A DNA stretch of 64,000 nt from Candidatus Woesearchaeota archaeon (GCA_019322375.1 JAHWIP010000003.1:6792-70791); one strand, 5' to 3'; positions 9,810-11,073 are shown, counted from the first letter of the stretch. A program made the numbers and translations. Notes: generated from the sequence alone by a model not told the origin.

Positions 9810-9965
9810 GTGGTAGTAGAATTTAGTGAATTCAAAGGCAATAAAATGATTGTTTTAAAGAGAAGCGATGAAGACCCTTTTCCATTCAGGTTTGGAAAGA
9901 ACAAAGCCAAACTCTTAGTAGAAAATTACGAAGCTGTTAAGAAGTTTGCTGAGGAAGAGGACTGA
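9810..9965 (+). CDS. Small hypothetical protein (~51 aa); start uncertain (GTG 9810 or ATG 9846)
   Basis: AAAGGTGA motif lies 6 nt upstream of GTG 9810. Product VVVEFSEFKGNKMIVLKRSDEDPFPFRFGKNKAKLLVENYEAVKKFAEEED. Its last 27 nt are duplicated at 11047-11073. Confidence 0.35.
   Translation: MVVEFSEFKGNKMIVLKRSDEDPFPFRFGKNKAKLLVENYEAVKKFAEEED
9939..9965. repeat. Left copy of a perfect 27-bp direct repeat (aagaagtttgctgaggaagaggactga)
   Basis: Identical 27-mer at 11047-11073. This copy is the intact 3' end, including the stop, of the small gene 9810-9965. Confidence 0.9.
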
Positions 9966-10041
9966 TTTTTTAACTAATAACTATTTTATTTTTAGTTTTC
10001 TTTCATAAGCTTTATATAATTGTAATACTTTCCTATTCATT

Positions 10042-10485
10042 ATGGAGAAAATAGAAGAAATAATAATAAATACTTTACGAAATCCGAAATCAGCCAGGCA
10101 AATTAAATATTTAGCTCTTGATTTACTATCTAATGCATTGAATATAAATGTTTTGGCTGATTTAGCTAAAAAGCACAACATTGAAAATAGAATGGGTTAC
10201 TTAGCGGAGATTAGTGCTATTGCTGCTAAAAAAGAAGGGCTATCCTCTTACTCAAAATTGAATAAATTGAAAAATCAATTATCTAATGGAAAGCGTTCTT
10301 GGGCTTATTTAGAACCTACTTTGCCTGAATATGCTAAACGAATAATCGCTGATAACCCTCAAACTAAATATAATAGAAAATGGAAAGTATATTCTACTCT
10401 TAAACCCAAAGAAATTTGTGATTGGGTTAAACTTTATGGTTTAAAGAAAAATGCCCCCTCTTTATCAAGACAAGGAGCTTACTAA
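10042..10485 (+). CDS. Hypothetical protein, putative partner (antitoxin-like) of the downstream nucleotidyltransferase
   Basis: 147-aa ORF overlapping the next gene by 35 nt. No motif recognised; the role is inferred from pairing only. Confidence 0.35.
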   Translation: MEKIEEIIINTLRNPKSARQIKYLALDLLSNALNINVLADLAKKHNIENRMGYLAEISAIAAKKEGLSSYSKLNKLKNQLSNGKRSWAYLEPTLPEYAKRIIADNPQTKYNRKWKVYSTLKPKEICDWVKLYGLKKNAPSLSRQGAY

Positions 10486-11002
10486 GGAAAATGTTCTTTC
10501 TATTTTAAGAGAAATAGATTCTGATTTAGAAGGATTACAGAGAAAATTAAGATTATATTGTTTAGGAGGCACACAACTAGCTCTTATAGACCTTAGAACT
10601 GTTTCTAAAGATATCGATTTTATAGTGTCTCATAATGATTGGATGATGTTAAGCGGTCCAGTTGCAAGGATAGAGAATAAAAAGGAAATAAGGTTTGATG
10701 TATTTCCAGGAGGCGAACTTCCTAACTACACATACCAATCTTATACTTTCCATGCGAAGAAACTTCCTTTCTATTTTAATAACTTAGAGATTTATTCCAT
10801 AGATGATGCAGATTTTGTATTGACAAAAGCACTTTCTGGCAGAGGAATAGATTACGAAGATATTGATACCCTCCTTTCCGGGGGAATTGAAATTCCTAAA
10901 GAAGTTCTTGTTGAACGATTTAAGGGTGTAAAACCCATGAAAGGAAAAGAAAGGGAGATTAAAGATAAATTTGAAAAATTCCTTAATGAATTTTATAAAT
11001 AA
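10451..11002 (+). CDS. AbiEii-like / MNT-type nucleotidyltransferase (toxin-like)
   Basis: LYCLGGTQLALIDLRTVSKDIDFIV matches the GGT..L....R.S.DiDF core that I associate with AbiEii-family nucleotidyltransferases. Confidence 0.5.
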   Translation: MPPLYQDKELTKENVLSILREIDSDLEGLQRKLRLYCLGGTQLALIDLRTVSKDIDFIVSHNDWMMLSGPVARIENKKEIRFDVFPGGELPNYTYQSYTFHAKKLPFYFNNLEIYSIDDADFVLTKALSGRGIDYEDIDTLLSGGIEIPKEVLVERFKGVKPMKGKEREIKDKFEKFLNEFYK

Positions 11003-11046
11003 TAATTGTAAACTCTACATTATATTCATCCTTTTGAAAGTAAATC

Positions 11047-11073
11047 AAGAAGTTTGCTGAGGAAGAGGACTGA
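11047..11073. repeat. Right copy of the perfect 27-bp direct repeat
   Basis: Identical to 9939-9965; lies in non-coding sequence. Confidence 0.9.

Follow-up and report, generated by a model that had tools for sequence, protein, structure and literature searches.

A putative toxin-antitoxin cassette between two copies of a small gene's tail in a woesearchaeal genome: a possible case of homology-driven, integrase-independent insertion

In the C-terminal displacement systems of Rhs, contact-dependent inhibition (CDI) and MafB loci, and in type VI secretion system (T6SS) arrays, an intact gene is followed by directly oriented, silent fragments of its conserved part, which vary in length and have new DNA between them (PMC2935791, PMC5361080). 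No integrase accompanies the Rhs and T6SS arrangements, homologous recombination with incoming DNA has been proposed for them (by crossover with a circle or by homology-facilitated illegitimate recombination, HFIR), and the fragments resemble other alleles. For Rhs displacement, which leaves core fragments of variable length downstream, the published model invokes one crossover with a circle (PMC2935791). Work in E. coli found that circular molecules duplicate the homologous segment when they integrate by one crossover, and that HFIR leads to deletions (PMC3240628); for T6SS effector-immunity genes, displacement by HFIR has been proposed (PMC5361080). Here we describe a locus of similar build in a metagenome-assembled genome (MAG) of a Candidatus Woesearchaeota archaeon (GCA_019322375.1; NCBI tags KY348_00275 and KY348_00280). 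In the 64-kb stretch analysed, henceforth the window (JAHWIP010000003.1:6792-70791), the last eight codons and the stop codon of a small conserved gene are repeated downstream, and a two-gene cassette encoding a putative toxin-antitoxin pair lies between the copies. As in Rhs displacement, the gene is intact, its fragments at this and related loci are direct and variable in length, foreign DNA separates them and no integrase is encoded; at four related loci (L049, L085, L036, and L041) the fragment is moreover allele-like. The loci differ in what is repeated and what is carried, since in Rhs and T6SS displacement the tips consist of variable toxin domains, accompanied by immunity genes, and the repeated core measures hundreds of nucleotides, whereas here the repeat is a conserved tail of 27-73 nt, the anchor is a housekeeping-like gene of about 50 codons found in DPANN archaea and bacteria of the candidate phyla radiation (CPR), and the cargo is unrelated, being either hairpins or a toxin-antitoxin pair. 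We propose, with a probability of about one half, that the repeat pair was left by an insertion driven by homology and independent of an integrase ("tip displacement").

The 27-mer AAGAAGTTTGCTGAGGAAGAGGACTGA occurs exactly twice in the window, at 9939-9965 and 11047-11073, both times on the + strand, and no third copy appears even when three mismatches are allowed. None of 100 shuffled sequences gave two matches to it, and a scan of the window for exact direct repeats (22 nt or longer, copies no more than 6 kb apart) returned this pair alone. The copies are 1,081 bp apart, so that repeat plus insert form a unit of 1,108 bp. The list of open reading frames (ORFs) places copy 1 at the end of the small gene and copy 2 in non-coding sequence, with exactly two ORFs, overlapping each other, in between. 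On the positions and nature of the two copies and on the gene pair between them, an earlier description of this DNA, made without database searches (henceforth the sequence-only reading), had been accurate. The spacer that precedes copy 2 ends with the codon ATC, so copy 2 reads IKKFAEEED*.

An assembly in which two strain haplotypes with a common conserved gene had been concatenated could produce the same picture, and a conserved gene is a natural tangle in an assembly graph. Overlapping contig ends do surround 100-N gaps in related MAGs: a 48-nt repeat at L032:8909-9104 (copies at 8909 and 9057) and a 99-nt repeat at L011:817-1114 flank such scaffold gaps and were rejected as tail duplications. 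Contig ends that overlap and were left unmerged by scaffolding thus form an artefact class that mimics a tail-insert-tail pattern. Both junctions in the window are, however, reproduced by independent Logan contigs of run SRR14699983, one of which (L002) equals window 6879-9990 and extends 25 nt beyond copy 1, while the other (L001) equals window 10007-13154 and spans copy 2. Since the Logan assembly used k = 31, which exceeds the length of the repeat, each of these junctions has read support. The 16 AT-rich bases between the two contigs (9991-10006, in the left-hand spacer IG1) lie outside both, and continuity there comes from the MAG assembly alone. Furthermore, the inserts are real sequence and not Ns, those of L049 and L041 lie inside k87 MEGAHIT contigs in which single k-mers span much of the A-B-A arrangement (A, duplication; B, insert), and L039 and L048 have the same structure in different studies. 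We give an assembly artefact very little credence.

Comparison with related loci indicates that the cassette-bearing segment is derived. Closest in flank identity are L003-L006 and L012 (79-85%), joined by L010, L016, and L051; there the small gene is followed after 12-25 nt by a convergent gene, p329, and then by genes for a tRNA-splicing endonuclease and RNase Z. All of these loci lack the cassette as well as the 246-aa gene that follows copy 2 in the window, and the 1.9 kb at 9966-11875 is therefore derived. For an empty site, which the sequence-only reading had proposed to seek in related genomes, no same-species case was found: exact-protein look-ups with five window proteins returned run SRR14699983 only. 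A homologue search with ORF1, the first cassette gene, returned ORF1 itself only. In L030 (1026-1421), a 131-aa ORF without a Pfam match fills the same gap between the small gene and p329, which adds to the evidence that the gap is a variable slot.

Tail duplication also recurs at the small gene. A second tail copy lies downstream of an insert at nine of about 81 species-level loci, the window included (about one in nine). The duplication is exact in the window, L022, L048, L039, and L032 (Table 1) and diverged in L049, L085, L036, and L041, where a peptide-level search located the second tail 23-37 nt past the stop codon, still reading ..IKKF.EEE*. Insert-free relatives with the same synteny exist for L022 and L039 (L021, L029, L031, and L059) and for L032 (L024). 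The inserts are mutually unrelated in sequence and the duplicated lengths vary, with left edges at -27, -27, -30, -42, -45, and -46 and a right edge that coincides with the stop codon or lies at +46. In the window, L022, and L048 the exact repeat runs precisely to the stop codon, the point at which selective constraint ceases. In the four diverged pairs, 19 of the 22 nucleotide differences fall at third codon positions (P = 4e-7) and 17 of the 20 differing codons are synonymous. Since a non-coding duplicate would decay otherwise, the second tail evolved as a coding allele until it was joined to the locus. The copies in the window are identical, and an allelic origin is untraceable there apart from the ATC (Ile) codon before copy 2.

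Table 1. Features of the window around the repeat pair, and dimensions of the tail duplications at four related loci
Feature	Coordinates	Strand	Duplication A	Insert B	Remarks
Small conserved gene	9810..9965	+			51 aa from GTG 9810, 54 aa from GTG 9801; anchor gene with duplicated 3' end
Repeat copy 1 (A1)	9939..9965	+			Codons KKFAEEED and TGA at the 3' end of the small gene
IG1	9966..10041	+			T-run and TATA-like promoter region 5' of ORF1; probably the diverged counterpart of IG2
ORF1	10042..10485	+			147 aa; putative antitoxin or regulator; helical, partly AbiEi-like predicted fold
ORF2	10451..11002	+			183 aa; DUF6036 nucleotidyltransferase, putative toxin; overlaps ORF1 by 35 nt
Right-hand spacer	11003..11046	+			44 nt, from the ORF2 stop to copy 2
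Repeat copy 2 (A2)	11047..11073	+			Displaced, non-coding copy of the gene tail
IG2	11074..11134	+			Downstream (3') region of the small gene; also promoter region for the gene that follows
246-aa gene	11135..11875	+			Weak match to a twin-arginine translocation (TAT) signal; seen in this sample only, absent from all related loci
p329	11886..12875	-			Convergent 329-aa gene; conserved right-hand neighbour of the small gene (cassette-free relatives) or of the cassette (L007, L090, P0004 contig)
L022			46 nt	59 nt	
L048			42 nt	40 nt	
L039			27 nt, then diverged	~34 nt	
L032			73 nt	169 nt	

Translation of the second tail was rejected, as the frame offsets between copies are inconsistent and the open frame in L085 lacks a start codon; so were the decay of a tandem paralogue (no locus carries the small gene twice in full) and known RNAs in the inserts (no Rfam match at E <= 1 in L022, L032, L039, and L048). 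A control scan of 765 kb turned up few comparable repeats; two of them are scaffold gaps (100 N), and two, at genes other than the small gene, are real. In L032 (9391-9551, repeats at 9391 and 9520), a 32-nt duplication flanks a 97-nt hairpin insert that forms a new C-terminus and is absent from L024, and in a Berkelbacteria genome (L071:6676-6850) a 52-nt duplication of the 3' end of a Mur-ligase-like gene is arranged as tail-insert-tail. The L032 inserts resemble each other significantly (score 43 vs 20.9 +/- 3.7), and they lie at different genes between different flanking duplications (73 and 32 nt), which argues against one att site.

In the model that we favour, donor DNA from a related genome would have carried at least 27 nt of the small-gene tail, the IG1 promoter region and the ORF1-ORF2 module, and would have crossed over with the resident small gene inside the identical 27-nt tail. 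A single (Campbell-type) crossover with a circle of about 1.1 kb would give the order gene-A1-IG1-ORF1-ORF2-44 nt-A2-IG2-resident next gene, which is the order observed; the small gene would stay intact, and its old tail would be pushed downstream and fall silent. Given the gene order of a Campbell product, the cassette would be the incoming DNA and the 246-aa gene the resident, presumably the downstream neighbour of the small gene when the insertion happened. On this model the empty site would read GAAGCTGTT-27mer-GCCAATTTTTTAG, and a 1,108-bp circle or a tandem would contain the junction ...GAAAGTAAATC-27mer-TTTTTTAACTAA. The small gene may serve as a hotspot by being an island of high nucleotide conservation amid non-syntenic genomes, and a toxin-antitoxin cargo would oppose its own loss through loop-out recombination between the repeats.

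Integrative elements in the 3' ends of tRNA, tmRNA, and protein genes leave a comparable picture, in that the repeat duplicates the 3' end of the target and stops at the gene end while the gene remains intact. The sequence-only reading had taken the locus for a site-specific insertion into the 3' end of a host gene; the insertion with its tail duplication and the AbiE-like cargo hold, and the action of a site-specific recombinase is probably to be dropped. Such a recombinase, of the tyrosine or serine type, would be encoded elsewhere and use the gene tail as its attachment site; the cassette would then be a non-autonomous, cis-mobilisable unit or what decay has left of a larger integrative element that supplied a replacement 3' end, as in tRNA genes. 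Direct repeats that duplicate a gene's 3' end up to its very end are what attL/attR sites classically look like, copy 2 is followed by native downstream sequence, element-borne tails would likewise be other alleles with synonymous differences, and a toxin-antitoxin pair is a cargo expected to outlast decay. However, the insert holds no recombinase, as the sequence-only reading had already noted, its only genes being ORF1 and ORF2; a crude motif screen found no tyrosine-recombinase motif in the window or in about 90 loci, no recombinase lies beside the small gene on three viral contigs, and the neighbours of the cassette are housekeeping genes. The window-type loci further differ from integrative elements in their variable crossover positions (left edge from -27 to -46, right edge from the stop codon to +46) and in their mostly tiny, unrelated inserts. 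Eight lineages have inserts of 27-169 nt, each of which would need to be an extreme remnant, and the two related L032 inserts have different flanking duplications. An origin from a virus or plasmid was rejected, since IMG/VR contains no relatives of ORF2, no copy of the 27-mer and no copy of the hairpin common to L039 and L048 (see below). We regard integration by a recombinase encoded elsewhere as unlikely.

Integron cassettes and the pdif modules of Acinetobacter are likewise small modules without a recombinase, often toxin-antitoxin pairs, that are bounded by short recombination sites. The window differs from them in having no attC-like or dif-like (palindromic) site, and the repeats at such loci consist of host coding sequence and are genome-specific.

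A target-site duplication made by transposition would have to be long, with cuts staggered by 27-73 nt (by an element-encoded or trans-acting nuclease) or target-primed synthesis, the tail being duplicated by fill-in. The window, L022, L048, and L032 do have exact duplications of the host's own sequence, left edges often fall at a GT(T/A)GAA-like sequence, and the two related hairpin inserts of L032 sit between different duplications with both in the orientation of the host gene. Yet there is no transposase, there are no terminal inverted repeats at the insert ends and no termini common to the inserts, and the duplication length is highly variable (27-73 nt). Tails that diverge by synonymous changes only cannot come from fill-in at a single target, and the insert in the window carries a promoter and resembles a genomic segment rather than a transposon. 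Transposition is in our view very improbable. Taken together, the variable duplication length, the unrelated cargo, the absence of a recombinase and of viral relatives, a repeat that ends where constraint ends, and the allele-like tails speak against a single att site as well as a fixed staggered cut.

Several observations nonetheless weigh against tip displacement by a Campbell-type crossover. A tail of 27 bp is near the lower length limit for homologous recombination. At the loci with short inserts, A and B together measure 57-105 bp, which is too small for double-stranded circles, so another recombination route would be needed there; one-ended invasion with re-priming upstream is the more plausible one for these inserts. 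In this variant of HFIR, a linear donor strand would pair through the conserved gene, and its non-homologous 3' end would prime or be ligated tens of nucleotides upstream of the end of homology, so that the tail is recopied. Short non-circular inserts, a variable left edge, a right edge at the end of homology and allele-like tails would all be accounted for, and HFIR is the route proposed for the analogous T6SS displacement (PMC5361080). In experiments, however, HFIR usually deletes recipient DNA and duplications come from circles (PMC3240628), and no microhomology is visible at the junctions, where any would hide inside the repeat. As the explanation of the repeat pair we find it rather unlikely.

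The history of the cassette speaks on the same side. Cassette relatives occupy the same locus in L090 (86%), L007 (69%), and the P0004 contig (68%), where the ORF2 stop lies 1-2 nt from the p329 stop and a second tail is absent. The cassette thus appears patchy across the clade and old at the locus, and it is gene order alone that suggests the polarity of the event; neither a same-species empty site nor a circle junction was found in the collections searched. An old resident cassette, with the repeat made in place by local duplication of tail and intergenic region or by arrival of the 246-aa-gene segment, and with gene conversion keeping the 27-mer identical, would agree with these relatives, whose divergence is like that of the flanks, with the identity of the tails beside diverged spacers (see below), and with the identity of the L048 copies. 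The loci with the closest flanks (the L003 group) lack the cassette, however; a tail crossover places incoming DNA directly after copy 1, which is where the cassette lies and not the 246-aa gene; and tandem duplication would yield A-IG-A-IG with no genes between. We hold an in-place origin of the repeat to be quite improbable.

The two spacers and the hairpin of L039 and L048 add to the points against tip displacement. IG1 (the 76 nt between copy 1 and the ORF1 ATG) and IG2 (the 61 nt between copy 2 and the start ATG of the 246-aa gene) align collinearly, with the common blocks TTTTTAGTTT, TTTATATA, ATTGT, and CTTTnCTATTC, and each is the other's best match in a set of 57 upstream regions (score 30 vs 15-17 +/- 3), with one unrelated promoter region scoring 29. 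Similarity between them beyond the 27-mer is thus suggestive, and the two are probably diverged counterparts (about 25%). If real, such divergence beside a tail identical at 27 of 27 positions would require a tail-confined crossover or gene conversion, or a different constraint. The identity of the two L048 copies, in an arrangement that apparently arose before L039 and L048 separated, points to gene conversion or recurrent events. L039 (5163-5188) and L048 (5167-5192) share, just past the stop codon, a G+C-rich hairpin core GTGATGCAACGGCGAGAGCGTTGCGT that is identical at 26 of 26 positions within surroundings of about 78% identity, and so exceeds the coding flanks; this hints that the core could be a mobile or a functional, constrained element. 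It has no Rfam match and no further copy in the fetched loci.

Some further candidates in the non-coding sequence were examined. The TTTTTTAGTT block of IG2 also occurs 3' of the second tail in L022 and L048, and the background of the TTTT(T)AGTT motif is 0.44% per 70-nt window. TTTTTAGTT was rejected as a conserved terminator of the small gene, being found in 0 of 80 first-70-nt downstream regions. The 44-nt spacer has no significant similarity to the small gene or to the 3' ends of p329 genes, and was rejected as a remnant of the p329 3' end from an L090-like donor (DNA P = 0.17-0.8; protein P ~0.1). The GAGCGAAGCGAA motif was rejected as the mark of one cross-species element family, as its L033 copy lies inside a long structured G+C-rich region and is probably a generic stable hairpin. 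That non-coding stretch (L033:6900-7140), in an AT-rich DPANN contig, is possibly an RNase P-type RNA.

The cargo in the window is built like AbiE and MenAT type IV systems, in which a regulator or antitoxin is encoded 5' of a polymerase-beta-type nucleotidyltransferase in an overlapping bicistron (PMC3985639, PMC10435456). ORF2 passes the Pfam DUF6036 model (PF19502) with 25.2 bits against a gathering cut-off of 23.6 over residues 17-140, and the same family is precomputed on its homologues P0001-P0005. ORF2 has no match to AbiEii/DUF1814 (PF08843) in Pfam at E <= 0.1, and the pair has none in PADLOC at E <= 1, AbiE models included, and none in NCBIfam. Thus, the core that the sequence-only reading had called AbiEii/MNT-type is indeed that of a nucleotidyltransferase, of the DUF6036 family and not of AbiEii, and the hidden Markov model (HMM) classification which that reading had suggested for both proteins gave no AbiEi match for ORF1. 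In an alignment of six homologues the catalytic-type residues G39, G40, D54, D56, D83, K126, R131, D134, and D137 of ORF2 are invariant, including the motifs LGGT (G39, G40), D54-I-D56, K126ALSGR131, and D134-Y-E-D137. AbiEii proteins have motif I hG[GS], II DhD, III KLxAaxxR, and IV +DxxD (PMC3985639), to which those of ORF2 fit loosely, with a K-to-R spacing of 5 and not 7. The AlphaFold model of ORF2 (predicted local distance difference test, pLDDT, 80) has as its best full-length PDB match in Foldseek the MenT1 toxin (8an4_B; template-modelling (TM) score 0.50, probability 1.0); the MenT1 matches 8an4_B and 8an5_B reach TM scores of 0.50 and 0.49 over 173-178 aligned columns, at a weak E of 2e-3 and 15% identity. 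The fold matches of ORF1 are AbiEi and Rv2827c, with only 59 residues superposed on AbiEi.

By predicted fold we consider the pair AbiE/MenAT-like, although it lies outside the AbiE HMM families. As known from sequence and models, it differs from AbiE in that ORF2 belongs to DUF6036 and not DUF1814 and, at about 183 aa, is like MenT1 in length and shorter than AbiEii, and in the 147-aa length of ORF1. The ORF1 family, small and uncharacterised, comprises 51 representative clusters in a set of 1.84 billion proteins, and none of 37 members has a Pfam match. A HEPN-MNT module was rejected, as ORF1 lacks an Rx4-6H motif; the conserved block of its family, NRxGYLAE, contains no histidine, and no HEPN Pfam match was found. 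The two genes are adjacent or overlapping in different genomic contexts and are kept as a unit in L008, L009, L090, L091, and the P0004 contig, as is typical of toxin-antitoxin pairs. We infer that ORF1 and ORF2 form such a pair, of which toxicity and addiction would be expected. The L008 context is G+C-rich and bacterial-like, and a 23-nt hairpin-containing direct repeat (1241-1263 and 3795-3817) brackets the ORF1-ORF2 homologues there together with an alpha-L-fucosidase gene. The copy in L091 (4488-6065) is distant; its nucleotidyltransferase is frameshifted between motifs I and II (146 aa product), and a PIN-domain gene lies next to it.

The anchor gene itself is widespread. Its homologues include 53 proteins of about 50 aa in DPANN archaea and 124 tblastn-confirmed matches in species-representative genomes, among them those of Elusimicrobia and CPR bacteria, and searches of Pfam and the PDB gave no match. 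On an IMG/VR contig (L094:2451-4424) a 94-aa homologue lies between a YqaJ-type exonuclease and RecT, which form a phage recombination module, and in L092 a homologue adjoins a PolIII-alpha gene with UDG and intein domains. These neighbours suggest that the small protein binds DNA or has an accessory role in recombination or replication. In L036, a 45-nt partly palindromic direct repeat (4772-4816 and 7735-7779) surrounds 2.9 kb with the small gene and two genes of about 320 aa, and an additional 23-nt repeat pair lies nearby (4897/7806). Upstream of the small gene in the window, the C-terminal ~90 residues of a 538-aa protein (9450-9744) are extremely cysteine-rich, with a local G+C of 0.51 against about 0.37 for the window; neither this protein nor the preceding 481-aa protein has a Pfam match. 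No tRNA was found in the window.

Tip displacement as such is known; what is probably new here is the use of a tiny conserved archaeal gene as its site and a DUF6036/MenT-like toxin-antitoxin pair as its cargo. A far broader reading, which we consider unlikely, would see in the small gene more than a homology island: a dedicated landing pad, used across the lineage, where DPANN archaea and CPR/Elusimicrobia acquire genes with no integrase, perhaps with the help of the encoded protein. The phage homologue between YqaJ and RecT would suggest a single-strand-DNA or recombination accessory protein, and the G+C-rich hairpin inserts would be a new class of small element, spreading through recombination that duplicates tails at the 3' ends of genes. 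For DPANN archaea, whose genomes are tiny and have few recognisable mobile-element enzymes, the locus offers a concrete and recurrent route of gene gain, in which a short, extremely conserved gene would act as the homology anchor and the old tail would be left as a datable scar. The signature of that scar, a second, synonymous-only tail after the stop codon, may be used to find recent acquisitions with no prior knowledge of a recombinase. The cargo represents an uncharacterised branch of AbiE/MenAT-like nucleotidyltransferases, DUF6036 with a new partner family, and would extend this type of system into Woesearchaeota.

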